A DNA stretch of 24,000 nucleotides, from positions 7,304 to 31,303 of the forward strand of contig DATKZT010000083.1 of NCBI GenBank assembly GCA_035527845.1. Direction: 5' to 3'. Numbering within the stretch: the stretch's first letter is position 1; every line of letters starts with the position of its first letter. The position numbers and the translations under genes are program-made. This document shows, in pieces, positions 4,762-20,973 of this stretch. Under the pieces are notes generated by a model, which did not search any database, was not told the origin of the DNA, and worked only from the letters and a program-made list of their open reading frames with translations. This stretch comes from Sedimentisphaerales bacterium. Its GTDB lineage: Bacteria; Planctomycetota; Phycisphaerae; Sedimentisphaerales; Anaerobacaceae.

Positions 4762-7700
4762 TCATGGGGAAATTGTAACTAATTTGGTCTCTTGCCTGTT
4801 GAGTTTTACCGTTACCGTTCCCTCAAGTAAAGGAGGGCCGGCATTGAATGAAAGACTGCCTTTCCTGTCCTGATATAAGCGGTATTCTATATTGTACGTT
4901 CCTTCGTGCAGTTTTAGGTCGGGTTGACGCCCTATGGAAATCTTTTCCGGACCCAGCCGAACCGTATGTTCGGCGTTTTCACCATACAATGTAAGCATTG
5001 GTACAGGTTCCCGGGTCTCTGCATCAGTCACTCGGCAACGCAGATAAACGTATTCACCCGTAATCCGTTCTTTGACTACAGAATCAAGTTCGAACCTGAC
5101 GACTGCGGCCGGTTCCAAAGATAAGGTTACAGATGTAATCTCACCGCCGTGAACCTTGACTGATTCAGATTCACCTGGTAAAAAGCCGGGTGTTTCAGCC
5201 CAAACAACGTAATTGCCGTCAGGCAGAGTAGAATATTCTGCCTGCCCGTTCCCATCAGTAGTCATGCCATATCGACTGCCTTCCGGCGCCAACTTTTTGC
5301 TACAAAACATAGCCTCCAAATCGTTTCGTATGTAAAAAACGCAGTCCGGGATGCCCTGTGAAGTGTCTGCATCAATCACATTTATCTGAAGCGTCCCATT
5401 CCCAGTATTGAATGCCACATTATCTATATGCTCCGATTCGCCCAGCTCAAACTCATCCGTAATACCCAAAGTGTCTCCATCACTTGATGACAATAACAGG
5501 TAGTGTCGCCCAGCCCGTAAGTTTGCACACCTGAATGTGCCATCCGAATCAACCCTTGCACTGGCTACATATTCCCATCTTTGCAGAAAAATGCCATCCT
5601 GAGATTCTTTCGGCGCCCAGCGCCGCGCTGTTACTATCTTCATTTGCTCGTTTTGCATAAGCTGAACCGGGATTTTTCCACTGACTGAACTGTCGCCAAG
5701 TGTGATCTCCAACTCAGTATTGCCCTCAACCGCGACCCTTCTCGTATCGTAAATCCATTGTCCGGGTTCCCGTTGGAACGTCTTCTGATTAGAGCCTGAA
5801 TCGTAGCTTGTAGAAATCGTATGCGTTCCCTTAGGTATTCCGGAAATCTGGAATCGCCCCTCACTGTCCGTATGACCCCATTTCATGGAATTATCAGGTA
5901 AATGTATTTCAACGTTTGCCTTTTCAAGCAGAGTTTGTCCCATTCTGACCGTACCCGTTAATCTAAAACCGACTTCATCGCCAAAATTCAACTCGACTGA
6001 CCGGCCCTGCTCAAGTTTAATCTCCTTATGTGCAAGATTCAGGTTTCCATTTTCAGTTGAAGAGTTCACATTGACGGAAATGTCCCCTGCCGGTAAATCA
6101 AAAAGGTCATAATAACCTTCCATGTCGGTGTAAGTATTCTTGCCGAGATTAGGCCACGGCGGGCGTACCAGCTTCCGCAGCTGCTCCGAAAATGCATGAG
6201 CACTGACTCCGGCACCAGCAATACCCCGGCCATTGGCATCAATTACCCTGCCAAAGACTTCAAGGCCGGACTGTAAAGTAATCTCTGCCATGCCCTCAGA
6301 GTTTTTGGACAAATCGAGGCTGGACCCAAGATATGGTGCAAAGGTTTCAGCCGTGATATAGATACATCGCTCTTGTGAGCCTACGCCGGAAAGAAGGAAT
6401 TCTCCTTTATGGTTAGTGACTGTAGTATCCCGATCATCCCAATGTTCAAAATCGCTGTCGTTTGACAGAATACGAATTCTCGCACCGGCAATTGGGGTGC
6501 TGTTGCAGTCAACAACTCTGCCCGCAATAGCAGTAGCAGGTTTGAGTCTGAATTCTGTTCGATTCGGGTCGTTGCTGGTTGGCCGTACAATAACCGGATC
6601 AATCGTTAACGGATCAAAGCCATTTGCGTAAACTGTCATCGAGTACTCGGCGCCGACTGGAATATTTTCTCTGCCCGTGTCAAAAAAACCCTCTGTCGAA
6701 TCAAAATTATGTCCTTCTCTGTTCCATGTCGCCGCATATCCCCCACCTGGCTTCGTGCCGTTTTTGCTGAAGGAAAGCTTGACGTTGAATCTCCTGATTG
6801 GTTCATCGGTCCGGTCATTTGCAACTCTTCCATATATCTTGCCGGCTCTATCGATTTCGATTATGCATTCCTCTTCCTGACCAATCTCAAGTTCGCGCAT
6901 CAGATTGGGTACAAAGTCTGCAAATACCTCGATAATTACCTTACCATCAGGTGGAGCACTGCGCAGCGTGAACTTGCCTTCAGAGTCAGAGGTTACTCTA
7001 TCTCGCCAGTCAGTCAGGCTGCTCAGCCCTTTGTATTTGCGAATGTTCACAGTTACGCCAGGGACGGGATTTCCCTGTTTATCAACTATTTTGCCATGCA
7101 ACGGCACAGGATTAGCCAAGCGGATATTTATTAATTTCTTAGATGGTTTATTATCATCCAGAGAAAACCGCTCTACGTACGGAGCATATTTATTGCTAAT
7201 AGCCCAGAGAACGAGTTCGCCGGTATCAACATTCTTTAACTCATACCTGCCCTCGTTATCGGTCTTCGTTTCTATACAGTTCCACATACGACGAGACGCT
7301 GTATTGCCGACATCGACATTAACAACAGGGTTTCCTTCTGCGTTGGTAACCTGACCATAGACTGTAACTCCAGGTTTTAGAACAATATCTTTCCATGCTG
7401 TCTCACCGGCATTAGCCGGTGAAAAATTGGTGGCGAGTGCGGGATAGTTTGGATGTGTCACCTGTAATTGATAACTGCCCCAACCAGGGTCTAAACCATC
7501 AATTTCAAATGTGCCATTTGCATCGGTAATCACAGGATGATTAGTGAACTGAAAAGTTCCTACGGTCGCCCCCTTCACCGGCCTGTCGTTCTGATCATAT
7601 ATGATACCTGCAACCTTTGAACCATGCGTAAGTTCGACCTTGTAGTTTTCATAAACCTTATCTTTGACTATGTCCAGTGTTATTCGGCGCGATGTGAAAC

Positions 7701-8925
7701 CTTTTGCAATAATATAGAAACACTGTTGATCCCGTGCCTCCATATCCAGAAACTCAAAGTGCCCGTTTGCATCAGTAAGAAAAGAAGCTTCCGGCTTCTT
7801 TCTTTGCCCATAAAACACTTCTGCACGTCTGATTGGCCTGGAACTCGACTTATTGACAACAATACCGGAGATACCTGTTTGAGGTTTTTGAGGTTTGTCT
7901 GAATGCTCACCAATACTCTCGCCTGTTCTGTGTTCCGGTGACAAAGAGCCAATATTCTTACCTGAAACGATTTCATGACGCTCATTTGCGCCCGTATCGG
8001 TCGCTGCATCGGCAAAAGATTCCTCAGCTTCACTTTGCCGCACCTCGTCGAGACTGTGTTCTTCTCGTTGTCCCCGGGCAATTATTCCTGTTTGGGAGAA
8101 TTCCGGTCCGGGGCTGGGCTTGGTAACATGCCTGTAAGTGACCACTGCCCCGACCCCTATAGCTACTGCCGCAGCCGCTGCAATTATCTTGGCGGTTACC
8201 CCGCTCATCACGGATGCAGCTGTTGCAGCACCCCCGCCTCCAGACGCAGTCGCCGCAATACCGGCAGCCGTGGAAACGCCGGAACCTTCTATAGCCAGTC
8301 CGGCAAGAGAAGCAATAACAGTTGCAGTGAACGCCTTGCCTGGTCCGGTATGGCTGATCGTTGCCTCGACCATTGTCGCGACCTGATCTTTCAGCATCTT
8401 GCGCCCGCGTGAAACCCGCGTTTTTGCCGCTTCGACGGATAACCCGAGCAGTTCTGCAACATGGCTCATTGAATGTTCCTGGCGATAGAAAAGGACAAGC
8501 GGCTCACGATATTTTTCGGGAATCCGGTCCAATGCCTGACGTATCACAGCGTGTTGCTCCTTATCGATAATTATTTCAATGGGTCTGAACTCCTCAGAAG
8601 AAATGTCCTCCATTCTGTCTATCGGCCTGGCCTGACTTACAATGTCACGCTGCTTATGTCTGAAGTAGTCCCGGATAACATTGTGCGTAATACTATACAA
8701 CCAGACCCGGAATTTTGTTAAATCCTCGAGTTGGGAAAGATTCACCCAGGCTTTTATAAAAGCCTCATGCGCCAGTTCTTCACTTTGCTCTAAATCTTCG
8801 GTGGCGCTGAAAGTTATTGCGCAAGCCAAAGACTGATATTTCTTGACGATAGCCTCGAAGGCAGTGGCGCTGCCTTTAACGGACGCCCGCAACAATTCAA
8901 CCTCGCTGGATGTGTTTTCCAACAT
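4762..8925 (-). CDS. ECF sigma-70 factor fused to a TM segment and a ~1000-aa extracytoplasmic array of CarboxypepD_reg-like (Ig-like beta-sandwich) repeats
   Basis: N-terminal region 2 (ELAHEAFIKAWVNL...FRVWLYSITHNVIRDYFRHKQR) and region 4 (IPEKYREPLVLFYRQEHSMSHVAELLGLSVEAAKTRVSRGRKML). An Ala/Gly-rich hydrophobic stretch follows (VTAKIIAAAAAVAIGVGAVVTY). After that come at least 9 repeats of the pattern (I/V)xG(R/I/Q)VxDxxGxP(V/I)xGAxV...TDxxGxFxLxxLPxG. Start set at the ATG at 8923-8925 (MLENTSS); the upstream 52 codons of the ORF look non-coding. Confidence 0.8.
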   Translation of the reverse strand: MLENTSSEVELLRASVKGSATAFEAIVKKYQSLACAITFSATEDLEQSEELAHEAFIKAWVNLSQLEDLTKFRVWLYSITHNVIRDYFRHKQRDIVSQARPIDRMEDISSEEFRPIEIIIDKEQHAVIRQALDRIPEKYREPLVLFYRQEHSMSHVAELLGLSVEAAKTRVSRGRKMLKDQVATMVEATISHTGPGKAFTATVIASLAGLAIEGSGVSTAAGIAATASGGGGAATAASVMSGVTAKIIAAAAAVAIGVGAVVTYRHVTKPSPGPEFSQTGIIARGQREEHSLDEVRQSEAEESFADAATDTGANERHEIVSGKNIGSLSPEHRTGESIGEHSDKPQKPQTGISGIVVNKSSSRPIRRAEVFYGQRKKPEASFLTDANGHFEFLDMEARDQQCFYIIAKGFTSRRITLDIVKDKVYENYKVELTHGSKVAGIIYDQNDRPVKGATVGTFQFTNHPVITDANGTFEIDGLDPGWGSYQLQVTHPNYPALATNFSPANAGETAWKDIVLKPGVTVYGQVTNAEGNPVVNVDVGNTASRRMWNCIETKTDNEGRYELKNVDTGELVLWAISNKYAPYVERFSLDDNKPSKKLINIRLANPVPLHGKIVDKQGNPVPGVTVNIRKYKGLSSLTDWRDRVTSDSEGKFTLRSAPPDGKVIIEVFADFVPNLMRELEIGQEEECIIEIDRAGKIYGRVANDRTDEPIRRFNVKLSFSKNGTKPGGGYAATWNREGHNFDSTEGFFDTGRENIPVGAEYSMTVYANGFDPLTIDPVIVRPTSNDPNRTEFRLKPATAIAGRVVDCNSTPIAGARIRILSNDSDFEHWDDRDTTVTNHKGEFLLSGVGSQERCIYITAETFAPYLGSSLDLSKNSEGMAEITLQSGLEVFGRVIDANGRGIAGAGVSAHAFSEQLRKLVRPPWPNLGKNTYTDMEGYYDLFDLPAGDISVNVNSSTENGNLNLAHKEIKLEQGRSVELNFGDEVGFRLTGTVRMGQTLLEKANVEIHLPDNSMKWGHTDSEGRFQISGIPKGTHTISTSYDSGSNQKTFQREPGQWIYDTRRVAVEGNTELEITLGDSSVSGKIPVQLMQNEQMKIVTARRWAPKESQDGIFLQRWEYVASARVDSDGTFRCANLRAGRHYLLLSSSDGDTLGITDEFELGESEHIDNVAFNTGNGTLQINVIDADTSQGIPDCVFYIRNDLEAMFCSKKLAPEGSRYGMTTDGNGQAEYSTLPDGNYVVWAETPGFLPGESESVKVHGGEITSVTLSLEPAAVVRFELDSVVKERITGEYVYLRCRVTDAETREPVPMLTLYGENAEHTVRLGPEKISIGRQPDLKLHEGTYNIEYRLYQDRKGSLSFNAGPPLLEGTVTVKLNRQETKLVTISP

Positions 8926-9006
8926 AATTGGGTCCTTCAGAAAGCGTATGTTAGCCTGCCGAGACAATAGACGCCAGAGGTAATAAAAGGTGACAAAAAT
9001 TCCGGT

Positions 9007-9051
9007 GAAAAATTGCGAAATGCCCGGATTACTTCCGAAAAATTGCGATTT
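9007..9051. promoter_or_regulatory. Pair of 12-nt direct repeats (GAAAAATTGCGA) spaced exactly 30 bp, upstream of the sigma-fusion gene
   Basis: GAAAAATTGCGAAAT at 9007-9021 and GAAAAATTGCGATTT at 9037-9051. They lie in the 193-bp gap between the coiled-coil gene stop (9119) and the sigma start (8925). A candidate regulator-binding site; function unknown. Confidence 0.3.
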
Positions 9052-9118
9052 GGTCAATTCTCGAAAAGGCGGGATAAGCAAAAACGCGAGCCGTGATGGG
9101 TGCTGCTGCGTTTGGCCG

Positions 9119-10543
9119 CTACGATTGAAACGAAGCCGCCTTGTATTGGGACCTGCTCAACTGCGTGAAACAATCCGCACACAACAGTTGGCCGGAATCA
9201 ACCTTGACCAGGCGGTGTGCCTGCACATCCTTCCTGCCGCAGCATTGGCAATCCTCAGCTCTAACCGCCGTGTCAAGGATTTCAATCAAATCGGCTTGAT
9301 ACTTTTCTATTTCTTCCGCTTTGGCCATCGCCTCGGCAAGTATTTCAGCCCGCTCGCCCGCCTGAGTTTCCAGAGCCGCCCTTTGCCGGGCCTCATTCTC
9401 TGCCTCGTGTTCAGCGCGTGCACATTCTTGCGCCAGCGCCTCTGCCGCAGCTTCTGCTTCTTCTCTTGCTTGCGCCTCGGCGTTCGCGGCCTTTTCCGCT
9501 TCGATTCTCGCCTCTGTTTCAGCCCTCGCAACCTGCTCGGCTTGTGCCCTCGCCGTTATTTCCTCCTGAACTTCGGCCTCGGCCGCGACCCTCTGCCGCG
9601 ACTCTGTCTCAGCCCTGTCTTGAGCATCCGCTGCCGCTTGCCGCGCAGCTTCAATTGCCGCCTGCATCCGTGCAATTTGTTGAGCATGAGCGGCGGCCTG
9701 CTGTGCCGCCTCGCTCTCCACCTTCGAACTTCTGTAGGCCGCATCTTGTGCCTTTGCTTCCGCCTGCGCCCTCGCCTGTGCGTGCGCCTCCGCGGCCGCT
9801 TCTGCCTTTGCTCTCGCCTGCGCCTCAGCCGTTGCAGCCTTTTCCGCGTCCACTCTTGCCTGCGCCTCAGCCCGCGCCCTTTGCTCGGCGCGCACCCTCG
9901 CGCTTGCATGTTCGGCAAGTTTCGCCTCAGCCGCACACCTCCTTTGCCCCTCAGCCTGCGCGGCCTTTTCAGCCTCCAGCCTTGCCTGCAGCTCAGCCTG
10001 CGCCCTCTGCTCCGCCTGCTCTCTCGCCTTCGCCGCTTGGGCAAGCTTCGCCTCCGCAGCCACACGCCTTTCAGCCTCCACCCTCACTTGGTTCTCAGCT
10101 TCGACCCGCGCCTGCGTTGCAGCTTTGACCTGCTGTTGGGCGTATGCCCTCGCTCTCGCTTCCTGCTGGGCCTTTGCCTCCGCCGCCACACGCTGACCCC
10201 GTTCCGCTTCCATCTGAAGCTCCGCTTTTACTCTGCCTTCCGAATGTTGCCAGCACTTTCGCTTTGCCCTTTCCAGAGCGTCCGCGTATGATTCCTGTTC
10301 ATCCTTCTTTTCTTCGATACACGGCTGGCACGGCCAATGCCGCTGCCGACAAGTCTGACATATCGGAACGGTCTTTCCAGTGGAAGCGACCCCGCAGATG
10401 CCTTCCACTGCCTTGGTGGTTAGCTCTTGAGATTTCACTTTGAATGGACCTCGCAAAATGGATTTTCCCGCCCGCCGCGCCTTACCGAGACCGGCTGAGC
10501 TTTTTTCGACATCCCCAATTATATTATACTCGTTTTGTCGCAA
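9119..10543 (-). CDS. Zinc-ribbon-flanked Ala/Glu/Arg/Gln-rich coiled-coil repeat protein
   Basis: The N-terminal Cys cluster CGVASTGKTVPICQTCRQRHWPCQPC and the C-terminal CQCCGRK...(17)...CADC flank about 330 aa of AEAxA-type helical low-complexity sequence. That sequence includes 3 recognisable ~44-aa repeats (RVAAEAKLAQ...ARLEAEKAAQAE / CAAEAKLAEH...ARVDAEKAATAE / RVAAEAEVQE...ARIEAEKAANAE). The start is uncertain: TTG at 10543, or GTG at about 10436 with GAGG upstream. Confidence 0.6.
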   Translation of the reverse strand: MRQNEYNIIGDVEKSSAGLGKARRAGKSILRGPFKVKSQELTTKAVEGICGVASTGKTVPICQTCRQRHWPCQPCIEEKKDEQESYADALERAKRKCWQHSEGRVKAELQMEAERGQRVAAEAKAQQEARARAYAQQQVKAATQARVEAENQVRVEAERRVAAEAKLAQAAKAREQAEQRAQAELQARLEAEKAAQAEGQRRCAAEAKLAEHASARVRAEQRARAEAQARVDAEKAATAEAQARAKAEAAAEAHAQARAQAEAKAQDAAYRSSKVESEAAQQAAAHAQQIARMQAAIEAARQAAADAQDRAETESRQRVAAEAEVQEEITARAQAEQVARAETEARIEAEKAANAEAQAREEAEAAAEALAQECARAEHEAENEARQRAALETQAGERAEILAEAMAKAEEIEKYQADLIEILDTAVRAEDCQCCGRKDVQAHRLVKVDSGQLLCADCFTQLSRSQYKAASFQS

Positions 10544-11045
10544 ATGTCAAGCCCGAACCGCCCTCGATTCGCGCACCGCTGATTATGGGACCGCACCCGC
10601 AGTGCAAATCACACGCCCCTCGGCCGATATTAAACCAGATACAGACACTATAACCCCGCAATCTCGCCCCACTAACGCACCAACGAACCCCAGACATTTC
10701 CTGATGGGAAAAGACAATCCGCCAAATATAATTGCACATGGTAAATGCCGCTTCCCCCTCGTAGCGACCCATCCTCCGTAGCCCCGAAAGGGCGTAGTAG
10801 GGAAGCGAAGATCCGCCAACATGTCCGTCATACCTTCAGCGCAGACGGAAGCCTCGTCCGAAGGAGGCCCCCCATTAATCAATAATCAATTATCCTTCAT
10901 TATTTCAAACACCCTCCCCCCGCCTCCACAATTTTGCCTTTTACATTTTCACTTATGATTTTCCCCCCTCCCTGACTCCAATCCGGGTGTTTTATGGTCC
11001 CTGTGATAAAGCGGGCTTTGAACGAGTCCTTCCTGTTTTCCACAA

Positions 11046-11077
11046 TAAAAAAGGCCGGGAGACTAATCCTCCCGGCC
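11046..11077 (-). terminator. Rho-independent terminator of the fusexin-like gene
   Basis: On the minus strand: GGCCGGGAG (11077-11069), a 7-nt loop, CTCCCGGCC (11061-11053), then TTTTTT (11052-11047). It lies 31 nt downstream of the stop at 11109. Confidence 0.75.
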
Positions 11078-11108
11078 CTCTGCCGTGTTATGAAACCTCA
11101 AATGCTTA

Positions 11109-12776
11109 TCACTCCGCCTCGGCGCCTGCAAGCCAGCACCTCGCCAGGTCGGCAAAATCGCGGAAATCGACCACTTTATCGCATGTGCTGTCACCAAGTA
11201 CGGAGACGCCTTCACCGGTTATGGATGCTTCATTTTTTTGTTGGAGCTCCCACGAATAATCGCTCCGGTGCTTTTTAGTGTCAAATTTAGCGACAACCTT
11301 ATCATATACTTTGCCGGTAGGTGATTTCAGGGTCACCAGACCCTCGTTTGAGGTATCCATGTTGTACTTGGTATAAATATCGAAAGAAAGCTCGGTTGAT
11401 TGATGTCGAGCCACCGTTCTTGCCTGCGCGCCAATTGCATTGAGTATATTCATATTAAAATCTGTACATGTAACAATATAATCTGTGTTCCCCGGCGTGT
11501 CGCCCATATTACGGATCATTACATGTAAGGTTCCTTCACGAGACATGGAGTTAAAGTCCTCCACGTAAGCGTAGTCAATGATGCCGACGGATTCATTTAC
11601 AGTGCTTTTGATACTGCCCCGCTCCAAAGTAAGGGAAACCAGGGAGTGGTTGATCTCGGTAATTCTGTGTTGAAGGATTTTTGCCATTCCCGAGGTGAAG
11701 TACATTGACTCTTCGAAGGGCTTCTTTTGATGGACCAGGTAAGTCGCATCAAAATTCGGATCTACCGTTAGTTTCTCCAAATCCGAGTTATGTTTTTGAT
11801 ACAACTGGTTATGCAGGCCGTCCCCGGCTTGAGATATCGTCCAGTTGCCTGCCTGCGTCCTGAATTTATAGAAGCTGACCCCGACCTTATCAAGCTCTCC
11901 CCCGTCCTTTGAAACCTCTTCTCTTGGCACCAACAGCATATTCTTCTGGTATTGCTGAACCATTGGATGATCAACAGGCTTTGAAGGAATATAAAGAATG
12001 TAGTTGTCAAGCTCCACTGCACCCGAGTATTCATCCAAATCGCCCAAAAGCGCTGCTTTTACTTTTATGTTGGTCTCCTCCGGGTCCGGCACATGAACTG
12101 TATCCGCCGGAGTAACTACGAACGTATAAATGTCCTCTCCCCTTATCATCTCAACTTTAACTTCATAATATTTTTTGTATTCACCAATCTCATAGCCGTC
12201 GAAATAAACCTCTCCCATTTTTAAACAGTGCGCGGTAGAGAAGGGGGCTTCGTTGGGATGCTCGCCGTAAAGTTCTTTTCCCCGCCACCAGGAACACGGC
12301 GAATCGATGATATCATGCACGCAAAATCCCTGGGAGTGTTCGACCTTTTCACCGTCAATATACGTCCATCCGCACGTCGGACAGTTCGAGTCCGGGCTGT
12401 CCATACACACAAAGCAGGGGCCCGTCGTATTCGGCTCTTTAAGCACTTGTTCATAAGGATAATAAGCGACCGTATGAAAGTAAGTTAACGGGTAATTTAG
12501 GATAGGCACGCTTTTGGTAATTGTAAGTTGTTCTAAATTTGGGTCGCCCGAGTTAAGCTCTAATACTAAACTTTGCGACAAGCCGTAGGATACTGGGAAC
12601 GTAACGACAATCCTGTCCTCGCAGGTTAGTCCACTAACGTCGCTATTCACGCAGTCCGTGATTTCTGTAGCTTGTATCCCTTGCGCATTGGCGGCGCACG
12701 GCAATATGATACACCCTGCAAATACCAACAGACACAAAAGAACCCACACTTTCGAATTGTTGCTCTTGTTCGACAT
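11109..12776 (-). CDS. HAP2/GCS1 (fusexin)-like secreted protein with a C-terminal dockerin-like motif
   Basis: AAGGAG SD lies 7 nt upstream of the ATG. The N-terminus MSNKSNNSKVWVLLCLLVFAGC fits a lipobox, with an alternative SPase I site after ANA. The ectodomain is collinear with HAP2 motifs as I recall them: LTCEDRIVVTFPV, TITKSVPILNYPLTY, CPTCGWTYIDGEKVEHSQGFC, STAHCLKMGEVYFDGYEIG, ALLGDLDEY, NMLLV...DGGELDKVGVSFYKFRTQ, GLHNQL, and the domain-III-like HVMIRNMGDT...DYIVTCTD. The C-terminus VVDFRDFADLARCWL is dockerin-like. No C-terminal TM helix. Confidence 0.75.
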   Translation of the reverse strand: MSNKSNNSKVWVLLCLLVFAGCIILPCAANAQGIQATEITDCVNSDVSGLTCEDRIVVTFPVSYGLSQSLVLELNSGDPNLEQLTITKSVPILNYPLTYFHTVAYYPYEQVLKEPNTTGPCFVCMDSPDSNCPTCGWTYIDGEKVEHSQGFCVHDIIDSPCSWWRGKELYGEHPNEAPFSTAHCLKMGEVYFDGYEIGEYKKYYEVKVEMIRGEDIYTFVVTPADTVHVPDPEETNIKVKAALLGDLDEYSGAVELDNYILYIPSKPVDHPMVQQYQKNMLLVPREEVSKDGGELDKVGVSFYKFRTQAGNWTISQAGDGLHNQLYQKHNSDLEKLTVDPNFDATYLVHQKKPFEESMYFTSGMAKILQHRITEINHSLVSLTLERGSIKSTVNESVGIIDYAYVEDFNSMSREGTLHVMIRNMGDTPGNTDYIVTCTDFNMNILNAIGAQARTVARHQSTELSFDIYTKYNMDTSNEGLVTLKSPTGKVYDKVVAKFDTKKHRSDYSWELQQKNEASITGEGVSVLGDSTCDKVVDFRDFADLARCWLAGAEAE

Positions 12777-13934
12777 GACAATCTCCTTTCTAACCGGTGT
12801 AATTAATGAATTTTGTTGATAAAAATTTTCTTACCCTTATTCCTGCCTCCTCAAGAAGGTTGTTGAAGTTATTGTTTTTCGCAAACCGGCGCGATTGCCT
12901 CCCGGACAATACGCACCGGCCGGCGGACTGCCCACGCCCGGGTTCTTGCGCTGTTTTGCTGAAATGCCTCTCGAAAATGGCTGGTGACGGGGCGCTGCCC
13001 CATATTCGCGTCTCCCAGAGTTCTCGCGTCCTCCGTACATCCAAAGACGCTCCTCCCCCCCAAATTCGCCGCCGCCCAAACCTTGGCCGTGGCTGATATA
13101 AGGAAACTCTATTTAGCGGGGGAAAACCGGTACTTCGGCCAAAAAAGATGCTCATCTCGCCTTCTCCCGCTCCTGTGTCCGCCGATACGAAAGGCGGGCG
13201 GGAACCGTTTCTTCTATACGCCAGACTCCGAAGCGGTCATTACAAATCTACCGCATCCACACCCGCTTGTCAAGCAAAATATCCCTTTACCCCGTTACAA
13301 ATATCCCGCCCACTCCCTCCCCCACATCTTACGTGCCTATAAGCCTGCCCCTGCGAACCCCGGAGGCACCGACCTCCCTTACGGAGGATTTCTAACCGGG
13401 TCCTATCCACCACCCGCTACCCACCGTTTACCCCGTTAGAAATAAGCCGCCTCTTGGCCCAACTCCCGGCCCCCGATCCACGAACCACCAAAAAGAATTT
13501 CCCTTTACTTCCGCCCCAAAATCGGGTATAATTCCCCCCCAAATGGAACAGCGTGGAATAATGCGGAAAAGCCAATTAATTACGACCCCAGCCCAAAATT
13601 CATCCCGTGAGATGATTCTTTACCCCATGAGATGCGTTAGGTATCTCATCGCACCTATCTCACCGGGATTGCCCATCTTGCCAAGTCATTACGAGTCACG
13701 AGCCACCAGCCACGAGTCACGAATTACAAGCCGCCTAAAACCCAGGAATCCTGCCCCGAAAGTCAAAATGTACGAAGGATTACGTATGAATTTATCAGCA
13801 AATTGTGCAAAACGAACCCAATTTCCAAAACAGCCAAAATCAACGCAAACCCTGTTCCCACAAAGGATTACGAAAATACAACCCCTTCGGCGGCACCCAA
13901 AAACGAACCCAAACGAACCCAAACGAACCCAAAG

Positions 13935-14208
13935 CAAACCCAATTTTTGGCTCATAAACGCCCCCCAAAGCCAAAACGAACCCAAACGAACCCAACTTGT
14001 CGCGGCGAAGCCTGCTTGCCACGGCGAAGTTTCATACGAAGCTGGGTGGCGAAGCCGGAACGAACCCAAAACAAACCCAATTTTTGGCCCATCAGGGGCC
14101 CCCAAAGCCAAAACGAACCCAAACGAACCCAACTTGTCGCGGCGAAGCCTGCCTGCCGCGGCGAAGTCCTCTACGAAGCCTGGGTGGCGAAGCCGGAACG
14201 AACCCAAT
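13935..14208. repeat. Two tandem copies of a 137-bp unit (~90% identical), rich in ACGAACCCA and GGCGAAGCC submotifs
   Basis: Unit 1 (13935-14071) and unit 2 (14072-14208) align base for base: CAAACCCAATTTTTGGC...CCAAAGCCAAAACGAACCCAAACGAACCCAACTTGTCGCGGCGAAGCCTGC.TGCC.CGGCGAAGT.....ACGAAGC.TGGGTGGCGAAGCCGGAACGAACCCA. Extra ACGAACCCA copies lie upstream (13899-13930, 13812-13820). All three forward frames are open, so this is not coding. Confidence 0.85.
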
Positions 14209-14260
14209 TTCGAAAGCTAAAGGATCTGAGCATGGGATGGCTACTGATGAATTGTGGAAA

Positions 14261-14333
14261 TGAGAGTGCTGGGGCTCGAACCCAGGACCTACGGCTTAAA
14301 AGGCCGTTGCTCTACCGGCTGAGCTACACTCCC
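14261..14333 (-). tRNA. tRNA-Lys (anticodon UUU), 73 nt, CCA not encoded
   Basis: The minus-strand sequence GGGAGTG TA GCTC AGCCGGTA GAGC A ACGGC CTTTTAA GCCGT AGGTC CTGGG TTCGAGC CCCAG CACTCTC A folds as a canonical cloverleaf. The 7-bp acceptor stem has one G-U pair. The D, anticodon and T stems all pair fully. Confidence 0.92.
14293..14333. repeat. attL: 41-bp direct repeat equal to nt 1-41 of the tRNA-Lys
   Basis: GGCTTAAAAGGCCGTTGCTCTACCGGCTGAGCTACACTCCC recurs at 21008-21048 with one mismatch (G at 14317 versus T at 21032), at an offset of 6715 bp. Confidence 0.85.
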
Positions 14334-14368
14334 CAACCGTATGAGTTATAAGGACTTATCTTCACGCC
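14334..14368. repeat. Left terminal inverted repeat of the element (partner 20974-21007)
   Basis: The reverse complement GGCGTGAAGATAAGTCCTTATAACTCATACGGTTG aligns with the plus strand at 20974-21007, GGCGTGAAGATAAAAGACTTACAACACGGGGTTG. The first 13 nt are identical, then CTTA(T/C)AAC, CGG and TTG match. Confidence 0.6.
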
Positions 14369-14373
14369 GTCAA
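14345..14373 (-). promoter_or_regulatory. Element-borne sigma70-type promoter driving the reconstituted tRNA-Lys
   Basis: Minus strand: TTGACG (14373-14368), 17 nt, TATAAC (14350-14345), ending 11 nt upstream of tRNA position 1. Confidence 0.55.
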
Positions 14374-14414
14374 ACACTTTTTACCTCAAAATCTCAAAAT
14401 ACGTCAGTTTTACG

Positions 14415-15587
14415 TCAAACAGCATTTATCAGCGCGTCCATTCCGCGGGCTGCTCTGGCGCGATCTTGTTCGGTGAGGCAGTCGTAAAACTTCGCAGTCG
14501 TGCTGAGGGATCGATGCCCCATTAGCCGTTGTGTTATGGCCATGTCCGAGTTTATCAAGGCCCAATTCTTGCCCGCGCATTTTCGCAGCGTGTGAATTGA
14601 CAATGATTCATCGGGCCCGGCCACAATGCCGGCCTTCCGGCAGTGTCTTTGAAACTCCCGATTCGCGTTGCGAAACGCCGCCTGCCAGCGCCATGTCCCT
14701 TTTGCCTTGCGGTGTGCTTGCCATTTTCGCTGCAACTCACTGCAGCGGCCCTGGTCAAGCACAATGTAAGGGCTCCGGAAACTTTGCACGCGAAGCCGCC
14801 GCAAAATCGTTATTGTCGATTCAGGCAGCCGCAATCGTCGCGTCCGTTCCCTCGGACTTTTCAGGCGAAACTCGGGCTCAGTATCCGTCCCTGACCGGCC
14901 CTGCAACAAAACTTCCCCCGTTTTCAAGTCCACGTCGCACCAACGCAGGGCCACCGCCTCAGCGAAGCGCAGGCCGCCCGTCCAGCACAGAGCATAAAAA
15001 GCCTGCCAGTGCAGCGACGGCGCAGCATCCAGAAGCCGCTTGAATTCATCCGGCGTGACGTAGTGCCAGTTGCGCGGATCGGGCAGCGCTTGCTTGACGC
15101 TCTCAAACGGATTGCGAATAACCCAGCCGAACGCCTGTGCCTGGCGAAACATCGTTCGGCAGTGCCGAAGGGTCCTGTGAATCGTCCAGCCTGACAGCTC
15201 TTGCCCCCGCACGGGCCGCAAACCCGAAATAAAATGCGCCGCTTCGTCGGGGCTGATGTCGGCGATTAGGCGTTCCGGCCCGAACCACTTTTGCAGGCGT
15301 GTCGCCGTGTTCCGATAGAGCTCGACGCTTGCCGGCCTGAGCGGCCGCGTTTGCAGGAACCTATCGCAGAGTACCTTCAGGCTTTCCGTCGGCTTGTCGC
15401 GCCTGGCCCCGCGCGAAAACTCATGCGCACGCTCTCTGGCGAGCTCCTCGGCCTGGGCCTTCAGACGAAACGATTTGCAATAGCGGCGTTGCTTTCCGGC
15501 GTGCGGATCATATTCCCCATACCACCGGACAATATAGGGTTTTTTTCTGTTCCGAGGTTCATAACCAATTGTGACTCTGGTGTTCAT
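14415..15587 (-). CDS. int: Tyrosine-type site-specific integrase
   Basis: 390 aa. The C-terminal catalytic region has GLRFAEAVALRW, HTLRKCAGKNWA and LMGHRSLSTTAKFY (the R...HxxR...Y signature). Sits next to the tRNA/att site. Confidence 0.9.
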   Translation of the reverse strand: MNTRVTIGYEPRNRKKPYIVRWYGEYDPHAGKQRRYCKSFRLKAQAEELARERAHEFSRGARRDKPTESLKVLCDRFLQTRPLRPASVELYRNTATRLQKWFGPERLIADISPDEAAHFISGLRPVRGQELSGWTIHRTLRHCRTMFRQAQAFGWVIRNPFESVKQALPDPRNWHYVTPDEFKRLLDAAPSLHWQAFYALCWTGGLRFAEAVALRWCDVDLKTGEVLLQGRSGTDTEPEFRLKSPRERTRRLRLPESTITILRRLRVQSFRSPYIVLDQGRCSELQRKWQAHRKAKGTWRWQAAFRNANREFQRHCRKAGIVAGPDESLSIHTLRKCAGKNWALINSDMAITQRLMGHRSLSTTAKFYDCLTEQDRARAARGMDALINAV

Positions 15588-15616
15588 GTTTCACGCTCCT
15601 TTCGGCTAAAAAATGA

Positions 15617-15880
15617 TTATCGGTTTGTCATTGCGTCAACAAACCTCTGCAATTCCGCTCTGCTGTAGAGCAGATTCTTGCCAATCTTTGTAGCATTCAG
15701 CTTTTTTTTCTCCCGGTAGTGTCGCAACGTCTTTGCAGCGTTTGCCTTTTGGCTGTCCAAACGCAGAAAAAGTATCGCCTCGTGTTCGGTCAGAACTTCA
15801 GGACACGGCGAAAAGCCTCCTTTGCCATCCGGCAGAATTGCCGGGACCGCAAAACCGATATTTGTCCCTGCGTTGTCCAC
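15617..15880 (-). CDS. xis: Excisionase-like / MerR-type helix-turn-helix DNA-binding protein
   Basis: 87 aa. LTEHEAILFLRLD...TLRHYREKKKLNATKIGKNLLYSRAELQRFV matches the HTH_17/excisionase pattern. Lies immediately upstream of int on the same strand. Confidence 0.6.
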   Translation of the reverse strand: MDNAGTNIGFAVPAILPDGKGGFSPCPEVLTEHEAILFLRLDSQKANAAKTLRHYREKKKLNATKIGKNLLYSRAELQRFVDAMTNR

Positions 15881-15943
15881 TTTATCCTCAAAAGGGACGG
15901 GCGGGCCTATCGGGAGGTTTGCCCACCCGTCCAGGAGGTTTAC

Positions 15944-17023
15944 TCAAGACCCCGCCGACGCCAGCAATCGTCTCACCTGGGCCTCGTTGAGCACCCCGCC
16001 GTACCGACCCCATGCAAACACGCTCGTCGCGTAAATCTGCTCGTCAAAACGCGGCGGATACACGCGGAGCGGCCTGCGATTCAGGTATTTGCACTTGCGC
16101 CCGGGCACTGCCAGATACCCCAGCGGCAGTTCGTCCGCGGTGTGCTCCGTACCGGCGCCGTTGGAATTCCACGTGTTGCTTGTGGTCAAGCCCAACGTGG
16201 TCACAAGTCGAATCTCTCGAATCAGAGTTTCTGGACCGCTATACACAACGCCTCGCCGCGCCTCGAGCGCGGCGGCGCACCTGTCGCGCCGGCTGAGGTT
16301 GCAAATCAGCACCAAAGGCGTTGCGCTCCCCGTGCGCATCCCAGCCGCCTTGAGGCCGTCGAACAGCGACATCACGCCGGCGTTTATGGTGTTCACATCC
16401 TTTTCCAACGTGGTCGAGCCCACCGCGTCATACGCGATATTCACGCCGTCAACCGTGCCGCCGAATATGCCGTCCGTCGCTGCCTCAATGAGGGCAAAGA
16501 ATACCTCCGCAAGTCTCTCCCACCACGCCAGGTTGTAGTCCTGCACGGCCTCTTCGATGTCCCACCAACGCTGGTCCTCGTACCAGACGCCCGGTATCTG
16601 AAGACCCGCGCCGTACTGGTCGAAGCGAACCGACTCGCTTACACCGGTCAGGCCATAAATAAGGGCCTTCTCGCCTGGCAGGACCTTCTTGAATGACAGG
16701 CCGTTCTTGACGTCCACGATGTCGAAACTGGACAATGTGGAGTTAGAAAGGTCCAGTGCGTCAAAGACGGACAGCCAGCTCATATCAACTTCGCCGGTCC
16801 CGACCTTGAATTTCTCAAAAAGCTGAGATACCTGGTCCGGAAACTGTGAAATCGTCGCAAGCTCCGCAAATTTCTTTGTGAGCGTGCGGGCGTCTCTTAA
16901 CGGCTTGTCGAAGTGGGCCTGCACGGCCCCCCAAAAAGCCTCGTAGCCCTGGGGCGTGAACTGAAAAGCGCCGTCGCGTATGCGCCCCATAGCCGACATC
17001 TTACTCTGGTCGAAAATCTTCAT
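15944..17023 (-). CDS. Putative major capsid protein (HK97-fold); assignment tentative
   Basis: 359 aa with a strong AAGGAG SD. The size, the position in a terminase-containing element and a loose resemblance to Mu gpT / lambda gpE-type capsid proteins support the call. No diagnostic motif was recognised by eye. Confidence 0.45.
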   Translation of the reverse strand: MKIFDQSKMSAMGRIRDGAFQFTPQGYEAFWGAVQAHFDKPLRDARTLTKKFAELATISQFPDQVSQLFEKFKVGTGEVDMSWLSVFDALDLSNSTLSSFDIVDVKNGLSFKKVLPGEKALIYGLTGVSESVRFDQYGAGLQIPGVWYEDQRWWDIEEAVQDYNLAWWERLAEVFFALIEAATDGIFGGTVDGVNIAYDAVGSTTLEKDVNTINAGVMSLFDGLKAAGMRTGSATPLVLICNLSRRDRCAAALEARRGVVYSGPETLIREIRLVTTLGLTTSNTWNSNGAGTEHTADELPLGYLAVPGRKCKYLNRRPLRVYPPRFDEQIYATSVFAWGRYGGVLNEAQVRRLLASAGS

Positions 17024-17027
17024 AATT

Positions 17028-17420
17028 CTACTCCTTTTTCCTTTGTTTCGTGCCCTTGCCGCCTGACGGCAGCTCCGTCTGTTCGTCGGTCGGTATCAAC
17101 GGATTATTCTCCGGGAGAGTCAACCCATCGAAATCGTCCGCGCCGCTGAAATCTCCCGGCTTGCCCCCGCTCTCCACGAAGGCCCAAAATTCGGGAATCA
17201 TATAGCACTGAATGGCCTGCGTGATCAGGTCACTTTGCGTGAGCCCGCTCCGCGCACACGCGGCATCCAAACGCCTCTTATCACTCCCCGTGATTTTCAC
17301 GGTCACGGCCGTGTCCTTCGGTTCAGGAATGGCCGCTAAGAGTTCATCTAACTTGGCGAGCCGTTGCTTTCGCGGCAGCAGTGATAATTCGCGTAGCTGC
17401 TTCGGCGTTATACCAGTCAT
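17028..17420 (-). CDS. Ribbon-helix-helix (CopG/Arc-like) domain protein
   Basis: Start chosen at the ATG at 17418-17420 (AAAGGA SD). VTVKITGSDKRRLDAACARSGLTQSDLITQAIQCYM fits the RHH beta-alpha-alpha pattern. The stop is 4 nt before the capsid-like start. Confidence 0.55.
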   Translation of the reverse strand: MTGITPKQLRELSLLPRKQRLAKLDELLAAIPEPKDTAVTVKITGSDKRRLDAACARSGLTQSDLITQAIQCYMIPEFWAFVESGGKPGDFSGADDFDGLTLPENNPLIPTDEQTELPSGGKGTKQRKKE

Positions 17421-17613
17421 GGCAAATCCTTTCAATAACATCCACAATGCACGGTCAAACAATATGCCAGCAAACTTGCCATAACGCGACTTGCATGTCA
17501 ATAGGCAATCTGAAATTTGTCTCTGTCTCTTGCCCCCAAAAGTGGCCCTAACCATTGCATCTGCAAGGACTTAGGTTTAGGCAAGAAATTTTTTACAATG
17601 GCCGAAAAAAGGG

Positions 17614-17642
17614 TTGACAGTTTCGATTCCCGATGTTATTTT
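17614..17642 (+). promoter_or_regulatory. Sigma70-type promoter (TTGACA-17-TATTTT) in the element's divergent control region
   Basis: TTGACA at 17614-17619, a 17-nt spacer, TATTTT at 17637-17642. The inverted repeat TTCTAC (17641-17646) / GTAGAA (17660-17665) overlaps the -10 box and start region and could be an operator. Confidence 0.5.
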
Positions 17643-17694
17643 CTACTTTTATGGAACATGTAGAATCGACTCGGTTTATCAATTCAGAACTAAC

Positions 17695-17764
17695 GGGCGG
17701 GAAAGCTCTGTCGGCAACGCTGAGCGGGCCTCTACATGGCCTCATTAACTCCCGCCCGCTTTTT
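17695..17764 (+). terminator. Structured leader or sRNA ending in a terminator-like stem plus U-run
   Basis: GGGCGGGA (17695-17702) pairs with TCCCGCCC (17750-17757), followed by GCTTTTT (17758-17764). The 47-nt interior can form two small hairpins (GCTC/GAGC and GGGCC/GGCCT). The GAGGTG SD of the next ORF follows directly. Confidence 0.4.
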
Positions 17765-17778
17765 CTGTGAGGTGCAAA

Positions 17779-18027
17779 ATGGCACACAAGACACAATCAC
17801 CTTCTGCCGAAGCCGTCATCAAAGGGCTCAGTCCGGATGAAAAACTGGCGCTGTATGCTGCTTGTGAGGCTGACCGAAGGAATTTGGGCACTATCGACTT
17901 TATTAAGCAGCTCGAGATGAAACAGATAGTGCAGATTTTGGATCTTTGGCCTATCGAACGTGTTTCTTTTTTGAGGATGGAGCTTGAGAAGATCGTAGCA
18001 GATGGACAAAGCGCAGCCCACGTCTAA
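17779..18027 (+). CDS. Hypothetical small protein (82 aa) of the element
   Basis: ATG at 17779 has GAGGTG 4 nt upstream. Helical-looking sequence (LSPDEKLALYAACEADRRNLGTIDFIKQLEMKQIVQILD). Convergent with TerL, overlapping its end by 4 nt. No family recognised. Confidence 0.4.
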   Translation: MAHKTQSPSAEAVIKGLSPDEKLALYAACEADRRNLGTIDFIKQLEMKQIVQILDLWPIERVSFLRMELEKIVADGQSAAHV

Positions 18028-19640
18028 TCTTCCAAGTCCCAGTCGCCGCCGACCTGCGGAGTCACCGTGTCGGAAGCACAACTGATTCCGGCCCGCACAA
18101 AATCAAGGGCGTGTCCGAGGTCGCCCACGCCGCCCGAACCGACAAGCATTTCTTGGACGGCACAGGCGACCGCGATTGCCAGGGCAACGGCCAGGTCGAT
18201 TTTCTTGCTCTGTCCGGACTTGACGATGCGCATCCCGCGGCCGGTTTCCTTGGCCGTGCAATTTTTCAGGTGTGTTCGCAGCTCCGCGCTTTCGTAAAGC
18301 TCCAGCTTGCCGCCGACAATCAGGGCTTGCAAGGTTTCGGTCATTGAAACGCAATTGCCCTGGGTCTGAGGATACTCCTGCATCGGCAAGCCCTTTTTGG
18401 CCAAAGCCTGAGCGCTCCGCGCGAACTGGTACGGGTCATACCCGACCTGGCCGATTAGATATTTCTGCCAAAGCTCCAGCAAATACGCCTCAACTGTCGT
18501 CTCAAGGTCAACAGCCTGGCCTTTTTGAGGAACGAAAAGCGCGTGGTCATAAACCGCCAAACTGCCCGGCCTGACGGATTGCCCGACAACCACGACGCCG
18601 CAACAATCATGCTTCAGGCCAATGTCCACACCCAACACAACCGGGCCATGACAGGTCCGGCCACGCAGCAGCCCCGGCTTTGTGCAGCTCTGAATCTGCT
18701 CGGCAGAAATGAACGCCGTTTCAGCGGCAACCCAGGCGTTCTCGTGAAAACGCAGGTAAGTCGATTCCGACAGCCGCCGCCTCTGACTTGCAAGGTATCT
18801 TTCCGTGACCCAGGGAATGTCCTCATAGTCCGTTCGCCACAGAAAATAAAAGCGTGCGTCCGCTTCGGCCTTGCCCTCGGCCATGTCCATCCCCTGCCGA
18901 TACCACCGCCAAAGGTGCGTGTCCTCTGAATCCTCGTAGCCGGCATAAGTCACAACCAGAATCAAGCTGTGCTTGCCCGGCACGTTGGTCATTTCGTCAA
19001 TTGCTCGCTTGGCCTCTGCCGACGTAAACCGCCACAATTCGTCGAAAATAACCAAGTCGGGATTAAGCCCGGGCGCTGTGGAATTGCACGGCAGGACCTT
19101 GATAACTCCGTCTGTGGTGCTGCACTTGATAGAATCGCCCGTGATAGTGCATGTCTTACGCAAGTACGGGTTTAATCTGACGGCCTTGCAGATTTTGGCA
19201 AAGACCACGAGCTGGCCTTGCTCCAGGTCTGGCCCCATTATGTAAATCTCGGCAAACTGCTTGCTGACCAGATACCACAGGGCCACTATCGCTGCAATCG
19301 TACTCTTGCCCGACTTTTTGGGCATACCCAGCAAAGCCAAAGTGGGCCTGAGATCGGGCGGGCAATAGAACAGGTCGGAAAAGATGTCTTGCTCCCAGCT
19401 GAGCAAGACTATCGGCTTGCGAGTTTCGGGCAAATAAAAGTGGGTCTCAGCAAAGCCGGCTATGTCGTTTGTGAATTCGTTAGGCCGCTTGACGAACAGT
19501 TCTTCGGCAGCAGCCAACGGCTTGGTTTTCCACCGGCTTGTCAGATTTGCAAGCTGTTTGGCCCGCTTTTCTGGGTCGCTTGCCAGATAGCTTTGGCGCG
19601 GCCGATAGCTGCTTGAGGATGCCTTTGATTTTCCTGCCAT
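18024..19640 (-). CDS. terL: Phage terminase large subunit (COG4626/Terminase_1-like)
   Basis: Walker A GMPKKSGKSTIAAIVALWYL and Walker B PDLVIFDELW. RNaseH-like nuclease motifs VLGVDIGLKHDCCGVVVVG and KKIDLAVALAIAV. Start set at the ATG at 19638-19640 (MAGKSKA, GGAG upstream); the ORF extends to 19709. Confidence 0.85.
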   Translation of the reverse strand: MAGKSKASSSSYRPRQSYLASDPEKRAKQLANLTSRWKTKPLAAAEELFVKRPNEFTNDIAGFAETHFYLPETRKPIVLLSWEQDIFSDLFYCPPDLRPTLALLGMPKKSGKSTIAAIVALWYLVSKQFAEIYIMGPDLEQGQLVVFAKICKAVRLNPYLRKTCTITGDSIKCSTTDGVIKVLPCNSTAPGLNPDLVIFDELWRFTSAEAKRAIDEMTNVPGKHSLILVVTYAGYEDSEDTHLWRWYRQGMDMAEGKAEADARFYFLWRTDYEDIPWVTERYLASQRRRLSESTYLRFHENAWVAAETAFISAEQIQSCTKPGLLRGRTCHGPVVLGVDIGLKHDCCGVVVVGQSVRPGSLAVYDHALFVPQKGQAVDLETTVEAYLLELWQKYLIGQVGYDPYQFARSAQALAKKGLPMQEYPQTQGNCVSMTETLQALIVGGKLELYESAELRTHLKNCTAKETGRGMRIVKSGQSKKIDLAVALAIAVACAVQEMLVGSGGVGDLGHALDFVRAGISCASDTVTPQVGGDWDLED

Positions 19641-20861: not shown

Positions 20862-20973
20862 CCCATACGTCCCAAATACGTCTTTTCCTAACGGGTTTAG
20901 TGTGTGTGTGGTCTCGGCTTGCAGTAGGTAGTCAGAAGGGTTTCTGTTTTTACGTCAAATCCGAGGCCATAAA

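Follow-up and report, generated by a model that had tools for sequence, protein, structure and literature searches.

Analysis of a 24,000-nucleotide stretch of DNA from a Sedimentisphaerales bacterium (assembly GCA_035527845.1, contig DATKZT010000083.1, positions 7,304 to 31,303; the whole stretch is hereafter called the window) showed that the gene at 11109-12776 on the minus strand encodes a HAP2/GCS1 protein that has no C-terminal transmembrane (TM) helix. The gene is bacterial and lies on ordinary chromosomal contigs, and the absence of the anchor is the rule for the bacterial HAP2 clade. The protein represents a bacterial HAP2 that is anchorless by nature, is conserved and has exchangeable surface modules; it is present in the databases and apparently undescribed in the literature; full-text literature searching found no paper on bacterial HAP2. 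Having no membrane anchor and a dockerin-type tail, HAP2 here cannot act in the textbook manner, and it is proposed with moderate confidence that the protein is a Sec-secreted, membrane-inserting ectodomain tethered indirectly through a half-dockerin and not self-anchored.

HAP2 is the ancestral eukaryotic gamete fusogen, acting in sperm-egg fusion in plants and protists, with an origin that may be viral, archaeal or eukaryotic. Among prokaryotes, the only relatives on record have been the TM-anchored Fsx1 proteins of archaea, which are very divergent; a sizeable bacterial clade was found here instead, and the replacement of its anchor by surface-attachment modules is a natural experiment on a class II fusogen without a TM helix. 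The features of the gene and the evidence for each are as follows.

11109-12776, minus strand: HAP2/GCS1 gene, 555 amino acids (aa) (open reading frame (ORF), Pfam PF10699, AlphaFold2 (AF2) model, Foldseek)
12783-12787, minus strand: Shine-Dalgarno sequence AGGAG, 6 nt upstream of the ATG (direct sequence reading)
12684-12776, minus strand: Sec signal peptide, aa 1-31, predicted cleavage ANA/Q (19-residue Kyte-Doolittle scan (KD19), signal peptidase I (SPase I)-type sites of the family, AF2)
12711-12722, minus strand: lipobox-like FAGC, aa 19-22, probably unused (fits the PROSITE-style rule, fails the strict consensus)
11271-12674, minus strand: HAP2 ectodomain core, domains I-II-III, aa 35-502 (family profile and phmmer against the PDB)
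12228-12320, minus strand: cd 'fusion loop' region, aa 153-183, including W163, W164, R165 and G166 (alignment)
11196-11270, minus strand: conserved stem-like segment DYSWELQQKNEAS...GVSV, aa 503-527 (family consensus, AF2)
11112-11195, minus strand: single dockerin-type repeat, aa 528-555, Ca2+ loop and helix, Cys532/Cys547 (tail profile, alignment, AF2)
11049-11081, minus strand: intrinsic terminator, 28 nt 3' of TGA-TAA (14-pair stem with 8 GC pairs, T-run)

Identification of the protein as HAP2/GCS1

Pfam analysis matched the protein to PF10699 at 208.6 bits (gathering cutoff 27.4; E 2e-61) over aa 82-547, covering profile positions 47-508 of 515. Single-sequence phmmer against the PDB returned five HAP2 chains at 3.6e-18 to 4.2e-16 and the C. 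merolae HAP2 7s0k at 3.9e-11. A family profile built from 95 members matched Arabidopsis HAP2 5ow3 with an E of 5.9e-79 (query positions 33-531, domains I-III), 5ow4 at 2.4e-62, and 5mf1, 6dbs and 6e18 at about 1e-61, and among PDB sequences archaeal Fsx1 gave no match to this profile at E<=1.

The AF2 model, computed on the family alignment, had a mean predicted local distance difference test score (pLDDT) of 88.5 and a predicted TM-score (pTM) of 0.84. Foldseek aligned the model with the post-fusion Chlamydomonas HAP2 protomers 6dbs and 5mf1 at TM-scores of 0.74-0.87 (6dbs_A, E 2.5e-40 and 0.74/0.80; 5mf1, TMt 0.87), so that the model and the search agree on the three-domain class II fusion-protein fold, and the model fitted this post-fusion hairpin better than the extended prefusion 7s0k (TM-score 0.48). 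Archaeal Fsx1 was matched at E 2.6e-18 with a TM-score of 0.45 and 11% identity. A viral origin was ruled out, the best BFVD match lying at about E 3.5e-17 and 10-13% identity, which is much weaker than HAP2. The original prediction had called the protein fusexin-like; the homology to class II fusogens stood, but the label was too weak, as PF10699 and the structures identify the protein as HAP2/GCS1 proper.

The loop of the window protein reads C161-S-W-W-R-G, and the cd region aligns with the loop region in HAP2 from Chlamydomonas and from T. cruzi. Residues R185, E126 and Q379 of Chlamydomonas HAP2 (CrHAP2) organise the membrane-inserting tip, with R185 salt-bridged to E126 (Fedry et al. 2017, PMC5332557). 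Their counterparts by alignment are R165, E109 and Q324, to which the roles described in PMC5332557 may extend. Among loop-bearing family members R165 was conserved in 74/75, an aromatic residue at 164 in 73/75 and G166 in 73/75, and the partner residues E109 and Q324 were conserved in 91/92 and 90/93 members, respectively. The stem-like segment that follows domain III has the family consensus KYSWxLQxKNEAS; it was modelled at pLDDT 89-91 up to about aa 520, packed on the body, with a strand at 519-522.

Integrity of the open reading frame

The ORF at 11109-12776 is complete, encodes 555 aa and ends in GDSTCDKVVDFRDFADLARCWLAGAEAE followed by the stop codon; the interval 11109-11189 comprises its final 26 codons and the stop, with the translation STCDKVVDFRDFADLARCWLAGAEAE. 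The TGA stop codon directly abuts a TAA, giving a double stop, and the gene is a lone single transcription unit. A terminator 3' of the gene had been placed at 11077 by the original prediction; it is present, with the measured hairpin at 11081-11049.

The stop position was the same in at least 23 homologues at 55-94% identity, and the identical protein was found on independent contigs in 2 samples. A continuation or frameshift restoring a TM helix, which the original prediction had not seen, was ruled out, as all three frames 3' of the gene stop within about 15 codons and hold no TM-like stretch before these stops and the terminator. The conserved stop, the double stop, the terminator, the lack of a downstream TM frame and the identical second copy together exclude a frameshift or truncation artefact. 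An artefact more broadly, be it a pseudogene cut short, a TM lost to a frameshift or a contig of eukaryotic contamination, was suggested by the earlier view of HAP2 as eukaryote-restricted, by the gene's GC content of 0.466 against a locus mean of 0.53, and by every carrier being a metagenome-assembled genome (MAG), but it is effectively refuted by the duplicate in two samples, the stop shared with homologues, the flanking Shine-Dalgarno sequence and terminator, the bacterial genes, tRNA and prophage-like element on the same contig, and the agreement of gene GC with locus GC in 5/6 other bacterial contexts checked.

Absence of a C-terminal membrane anchor

The KD19 scan showed a sole hydrophobic segment at aa 6-34, and the maximum over the last 100 aa was 0.43. 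There is neither a single C-terminal TM helix nor, beyond it, a cytoplasmic tail with Cys and positive charge, and the protein ends 7 aa beyond the CWL motif. The absence of the helix from this HAP2 homologue, already put forward from the sequence, was thus confirmed by the hydropathy scan, the double stop and the stop conserved among homologues.

A hydrophobic helix after the core was found in only one of 119 homologues (P0113). When 1.84 billion cluster representatives were scanned exhaustively with HMMER, 438 matched at E<=1e-3, a number that fell to 247 at E<=1e-10 and to 70 at E<=1e-30; the last set includes eukaryote-type, TM-bearing HAP2 proteins, and only the top ~45 representatives were judged bacterial-type. 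These ~45 (>=34% identity) had no post-core TM helix, except the AT-rich P0113 and P0121. Among representatives at or below ~32% identity (25-32%), nearly all full-length proteins, the Naegleria gruberi HAP2 among them, have one TM helix (aa ~480-600) with Cys-rich and/or polybasic sequence beyond it. The TM-bearing proteins have in common a motif ahead of the helix, roughly C-x2-3-C-P-x-F-F-[DN]-[IV]-x-C-[FY]-[IV]-x3-C-W.

The dockerin-type tail

The tail contains a predicted Ca2+ loop, D529-x-T531-x-D533-x3-D537-x2-D540, in which positions 1, 3, 5, 9 and 12 fit the ligand pattern, and an AF2 helix at 538-552. Alignment of 27 family tails gave the consensus G-D-x-x-C-D-x-x-V-D-x-x-D-x-A-x-L-A-x-x-W-L-x-G, that is, a 12-residue Ca2+ loop followed by a helix. 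When the tail profile was compared with all PDB sequences, dockerins were the top matches (2y3n_B, 2.4e-6; 5nrm_B, 1.2e-5; 1daq_A, 3e-3), and calmodulin EF-hands ranked below them. With Pfam Dockerin_1 (cutoff 22.9), the P0051 tail scored 26.2 bits, the P0096 tail 20.1 and six other tails about 14, and two-repeat tails occur in the P0036, P0039, P0040, P0045, P0056, P0061 subfamily. A planctomycete two-repeat dockerin fragment, P0259, ends in DGDGIVDFRDFAVLAENWLAEL and its stop codon and shares 13/19 residues with the window tail. A word-prefiltered search of a 5.8-billion-protein database with the tail profile returned 8 short fragments, two of them with PF00404, which bears out the link to dockerins; the small number is due to the word prefilter.

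The motif D-x(2,3)-[VIL]-[DN]-x2-D-[FLIM]-x(5,6)-W-[L..] was scanned in a six-frame translation of the window. It occurred exactly 3 times, always within real ORFs: in the HAP2 tail (11130-11180) and twice in an unrelated LamG/BNR protein (21234-23999), where the two copies flank the LamG domain.

21246-21296, minus strand: the dockerin-type repeat again, at the very C-terminus of the LamG/BNR protein (DGAINFKDLAVMGSQWL-EGM, then stop; motif scan)
22083-22133, minus strand: second copy, inside the LamG/BNR protein (DCAVNEKDLRLLALDWL) and across its LamG domain from the first (motif scan)

In 5000 composition-preserving shuffles of the window proteins, the mean number of motif matches was 0.0012 and the maximum was one, and the recurrence of the motif in the LamG/BNR protein, first noticed in the original prediction, was therefore upheld. 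By sequence comparison, the tail is one repeat of a host-type (planctomycete) dockerin that is also borne by unrelated secreted proteins of these organisms. The idea of a dockerin- or EF-hand-like module grafted onto the fusogen survived in the profile match and the module swapping within the family, but not as a full dockerin domain, given the single repeat and the lack of a Pfam match; a dockerin domain requires two repeats, so the window tail is not itself one.

A different origin of the tail was also considered, in which it would be what remains, in degenerate form, of HAP2's ancestral membrane-proximal Cys motif after the TM helix and cytoplasmic tail were deleted following a eukaryote-to-bacterium transfer. 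The AT-rich P0113 and P0121 (28-30% GC) have bacterial-like cores at 50-66% identity that continue into ...GSCDCAFFDIACKFIKFCWL, a TM helix and finally a polybasic tail rich in Cys. In both, the first and the last Cys, like the CWL, line up collinearly with C532...C547-W-L of the window protein (15-residue spacing), the bacterial protein ends where their TM helix starts, and a motif of the form C-x-C-x-FF[DN]-x2-C-x5-CW, directly followed by the helix, is general among eukaryote-type HAP2. Against this, only 4/19 residues of the tail match P0113, compared with 13/19 for the planctomycete dockerin repeat and 7-8/19 for the tails of unrelated proteins; other subfamilies have canonical dockerins of one or two repeats that lack the second Cys, and the tail profile matches dockerin structures and not HAP2. 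Residue identity (13/19 vs 4/19) favours a dockerin origin of the tail over a stem remnant, which appears quite unlikely.

N-terminal signal peptide

The N-terminus reads MSNKSNNSKVWVLLCLLVFAGCIILPCAANA, with QG after the predicted cleavage site. It comprises an n-region M1-K9 (with K4 and K9), an h-region V10-L25 of 16 residues and a c-region P26-C-A-A-N-A31, with cleavage predicted before Q32. The KD19 peak was 2.72 at aa 6-34, and pLDDT was <50 at aa 25-31. A small-x-small SPase I-type site was present just ahead of domain I in 77/78 homologue N-termini, and cleavage by SPase I at ANA31/Q32 is likely; an uncleaved signal-anchor is very unlikely.

Processing by signal peptidase II (SPase II) was weighed as well. 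In this case the protein would be a lipoprotein cut at FAG/C before Cys22, with its membrane tether at the domain I end, opposite to that of eukaryotic HAP2. The FAGC, together with K4 and K9 and a hydrophobic stretch of 9-12 residues, satisfies the PROSITE-style lipobox rule, as do the N-termini of the three nearest relatives (P0001-P0003) and four others, giving 8/78 in the family. However, F at -3 fails the strict consensus [LVI][ASTVI][GAS]C, Cys22 lies midway along the h-region, with the hydrophobic IILPC after it in place of a polar linker, a canonical c-region P-C-A-A-N-A/Q lies downstream, and the close relatives P0007 and P0015 lack the Cys. Processing by SPase II is accordingly rated as unlikely. 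The K-rich n-region, the FAGC under the PROSITE-style rule and the alternative ANA/Q site of the original prediction were all found again; the lipobox did not stand as a family feature (8/78 vs 77/78 for the SPase I-type site).

Distribution and modules of the bacterial family

A word-indexed search gave 119 bacterial-type clusters (90% identity), of which the named ones were from Planctomycetota/Phycisphaerae, Anaerohalosphaera, Thermodesulfobacteriota and Nitrospira MAGs, and database auto-annotation already gives the name 'HAP2/GCS1 family protein' to some members. Only nine carriers, all bacterial MAGs, came to light when 185,579 GTDB species representatives were scanned: five Phycisphaerae/Planctomycetota, plus Anaerohalosphaeraceae, an Olavius-associated deltaproteobacterium, Desulfobacteria, Nitrospira and Spirochaetales. 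With nine carriers among these representatives, bacterial HAP2 is rare and patchy.

The window also encodes a tRNA-Lys, a phage integrase, a terminase, an extracytoplasmic function (ECF) sigma factor and an iron alcohol dehydrogenase (Fe-ADH), and the seven homologous genomic contexts contained ordinary bacterial genes throughout. By Pfam content, nothing was common to the eight contexts, and all-against-all BLASTP of four of them (L001, L003, L005, L007) showed no neighbour in common; no conserved partner or operon for HAP2 was found in the eight contexts.

The C-terminal modules beyond the stem vary by subfamily and include dockerin, Ig-like, TSP3, MopE, PEP-CTERM-like and Cys-rich modules or none. 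Of the 92 homologues whose domain III end is intact, 30 had the strict dockerin-like motif and ~12 more bore variants; the strict motif lay 4-7 residues from the C-terminus in 26/30 and was followed by 21-26 residues in the other four. Bact_surface_Ig-like arrays were C-terminal in 26 members. Five members (P0063, P0077, P0079, P0094, P0119) carry long N-terminal collagen triple-helix repeats (PF01391) ahead of domain I, a built-in trimerising element compatible with trimeric use.

The deep-branching P0127 ends in CVPEAGSLPMLLSSGALLGELNRRRSRR, which resembles a PEP-CTERM/exosortase sorting signal, another possible route of surface attachment. A Thermodesulfobacteriota MAG contig (L009) has tandem HAP2 paralogues at 10001-11626 and 11730-13595, one with a short tail and one with MopE-like repeats, and an 862-aa TSP_3-repeat protein is encoded ahead of the pair.

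Transmembrane-bearing relatives and phylogenetic analysis

The homologues P0113 (L008) and P0121 (L022) lie on contigs of 1.2-1.7 kb with 28-30% GC and combine bacterial-like cores with a canonical eukaryote-type C-terminus, which consists of GSCDCAFFDIACKFIKFCW, a TM helix, a Cys-rich stretch and a poly-K/H/R tail. P0113 is 66% identical to the bacterial P0038 and only 50% identical to P0121; the stem and TM regions of P0113 and P0121 look near-identical by eye. This mosaic hints at recombination or inter-domain exchange.

Neighbour-joining with 200 bootstraps separated the bacterial sequences together with P0113 and P0121 from the eukaryote-type sequences in 105/200 replicates. P0113 and P0121 were sisters in only 8/200, which does not fix their placement. 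The trees, built from the sequences, do not settle the direction of inter-domain HAP2 transfer, and none is claimed. The clade nevertheless makes the direction and timing of such transfer testable, with TM-bearing relatives that have bacterial cores as the key material. A TM-bearing eukaryote-type HAP2, P0152 (NCBI MCQ2815805.1), is 29% identical to the window protein and lies on an 11-kb contig binned as 'MAG: archaeon', which is possibly mis-binned protist or virus DNA.

Proposed mode of action

The protein would be exported, cleaved by SPase I after ANA31 and folded outside the cytoplasm with about six disulfides. The recombinant, soluble monomeric HAP2 ectodomain (HAP2e) inserts into liposomes and trimerises (PMC5332557), and by analogy the tip of the bacterial protein would insert into a lipid bilayer and the protein would trimerise. 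The half-dockerin, presumed unable to fold alone, would tether the C-terminus non-covalently and in a Ca2+-dependent manner; its partner may be another half-dockerin, a cohesin-like surface component or the tails of the other protomers in the trimer. With the stem packed on the body and the model resembling the post-fusion state, fold-back would bring the partner held by the tail toward the inserted tip. Tethered indirectly in this way, the protein would act as a membrane-binding adhesin or 'harpoon' or, given a membrane-bound partner, as one half of a two-component fusogen. An adhesin, a secreted or vesicle-associated fusogen and a two-component fusogen had also been put forward in the original prediction as candidate functions.

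Several observations weigh against this indirectly tethered ectodomain. The window tail has one repeat (aa 528-551) and not two tandem ~22-residue loop-helix repeats, and it gave no Pfam match at E<=10, remaining below the Dockerin_1 (PF00404) threshold. A cohesin-like partner had been put forward in the original prediction, but no cohesin or other conserved partner was found in the window or the 7 homologous contexts. The relaxed lipobox is shared by the subclade of the window protein, including its three closest homologues. The cd loop (window aa 155-179) is deleted in ~18/93 members, for example in P0057 (SQGFCGGGVAHC) and P0064 (SQGFCSEATAHC), and these cannot use the canonical membrane-insertion element; ~15/92 homologues end directly after the stem with no tail, so neither membrane insertion nor tethering is universally required. 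All carriers are uncultured MAGs.

The loop deletions, the tailless members and the lack of an evident partner gene make a purely adhesive or structural co-option a serious rival, although it is less probable. Here the protein would be a non-fusogenic surface protein, in which the HAP2 fold serves as a binding or lattice head on Ig-like, collagen or dockerin modules and inserts into no membrane. The 26 Ig-like arrays, the 5 N-terminal collagen regions and the TSP3/MopE modules form a typical adhesin architecture, the TM anchor is missing across the clade, and the loop is wholly gone in part of it. This reading is opposed by the loop organisers, which are near-invariant where the loop is present (R165, the aromatic residue 164, E109 and Q324), and by the conserved stem-like segment, both of which are hard to explain without a HAP2-like tip function and fold-back.

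A bolder version of the indirectly tethered ectodomain is quite unlikely, namely that the anchorless HAP2 of Planctomycetota and a few further bacterial phyla is a working two-component fusogen that merges cell-cell, outer-membrane vesicle, or prey/host membranes, and that the clade together with P0113 and P0121 records recent inter-domain exchange. The ectodomain would harpoon the target bilayer, and its fold-back would drag a dockerin-bound, membrane-resident partner to the insertion site. If true, the inter-domain exchange would bear on the source of the fusion protein of eukaryotic sex.

Comparison with known systems

The window protein resembles eukaryotic HAP2/GCS1 (Chlamydomonas 5MF1/6DBS, Arabidopsis 5OW3, T. 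cruzi 5OW4) in the sequence homology and fold of domains I-III, and also in the R-E-Q network of the tip, the aromatic residues of the cd loop, the richness in disulfides, the signal peptide and the stem-like segment after domain III. It differs in being bacterial and in having a shorter cd loop. The Cys motif ahead of the TM, the TM helix itself and the Cys-rich or positively charged cytoplasmic tail of eukaryotic HAP2 are all missing from the window protein, which bears a single dockerin-type repeat instead. This cytoplasmic tail is reportedly required in Arabidopsis (PMC2841615).

Archaeal Fsx1 (7P4L) likewise has a prokaryotic class II/HAP2-like ectodomain with a signal peptide, and it has a fourth domain. 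The bacterial clade is far closer to eukaryotic HAP2 than Fsx1 is. Unlike Fsx1, the window protein has no TM helices, and its gene is chromosomal, solitary and outside the adjacent integrated element; Fsx1 has three C-terminal TM helices and is encoded on mobile elements that have integrated (Moi et al. 2022, PMC9259645).

The anchorless, bilayer-inserting and trimerising behaviour proposed for the bacterial protein is, by analogy, that of soluble class II ectodomains. Recombinant HAP2e is one such ectodomain, anchorless and monomeric in solution, inserting its fusion loops into bilayers and trimerising (PMC5332557). Flavivirus sE and alphavirus E1* are others. All three are laboratory truncations unable to fuse membranes, whereas the anchorless bacterial form is natural and conserved and has a predicted tethering module. 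Type I dockerins (PF00404; 2Y3N_B, 5NRM_B, 1DAQ) and non-cellulosomal dockerin-like modules share with the window tail the 12-residue Ca2+ loop, the helix, Asp/Thr at loop positions 1, 3, 5, 9 and 12, and the C-terminal position on secreted proteins. Compared with type I dockerins, the window tail has one repeat instead of two and falls below Pfam detection, and its Trp-Leu end and Cys pair are planctomycete-specific.

Genomic surroundings

A 6.7-kb integrated phage-like or satellite element occupies 14293-21048, bounded by 41-nt direct repeats at 14293-14333 and 21008-21048 (98% identical). The repeat is the 5' half of the tRNA-Lys(UUU) at 14261-14333 on the minus strand, and duplication of the 5' rather than the 3' half of a tRNA is unusual. 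The element encodes an integrase (14415-15587), a capsid-like protein (15944-17023), TerL (18024-19709) and an HTH_36 protein (19871-20704), and contains four iteron-like TGTCGTACTTG repeats at 20221-20353. HAP2 as cargo of this element was ruled out, as the repeats bound 14293-21048 and the gene is situated across the tRNA from that interval.

The ~1.5 kb that separate the HAP2 start from the tRNA (12777-14260) contain no convincing ORF, and an Rfam search of this long upstream region for a riboswitch or non-coding RNA found the tRNA only. Runs of the decamer AACGAACCCA and a 137-nt tandem duplication (13922-14207) occur in this region, whose GC skew is -0.34. The small metagenomic ORFs P0260 and P0262 join a repeat-like translation (…KTNPKQSQFKPN…) to the HAP2 3' end (…GVSVLGDSTCD.KVDFRDF…CWL…), so that a similar repeat seems to abut or interrupt HAP2 genes elsewhere.

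Just downstream of HAP2, the gene at 9119-10543 on the minus strand encodes a 474-aa Ala/Glu/Gln-rich coiled-coil protein that has no Pfam match and bears CxxC pairs at each end. A 126-nt repeat lies inside the gene, and its sigma-70 promoter (TTGACA-16-TATAAT, 10550-10523) is a perfect one. The gene at 4762-9081 on the minus strand encodes a 1439-aa protein in which an ECF sigma factor (regions 2 and 4) is joined to about eight CarboxypepD_reg repeats. The GC content of this gene (0.476) is low, like that of the HAP2 gene, while the neighbouring genes are mostly at 0.51-0.63.

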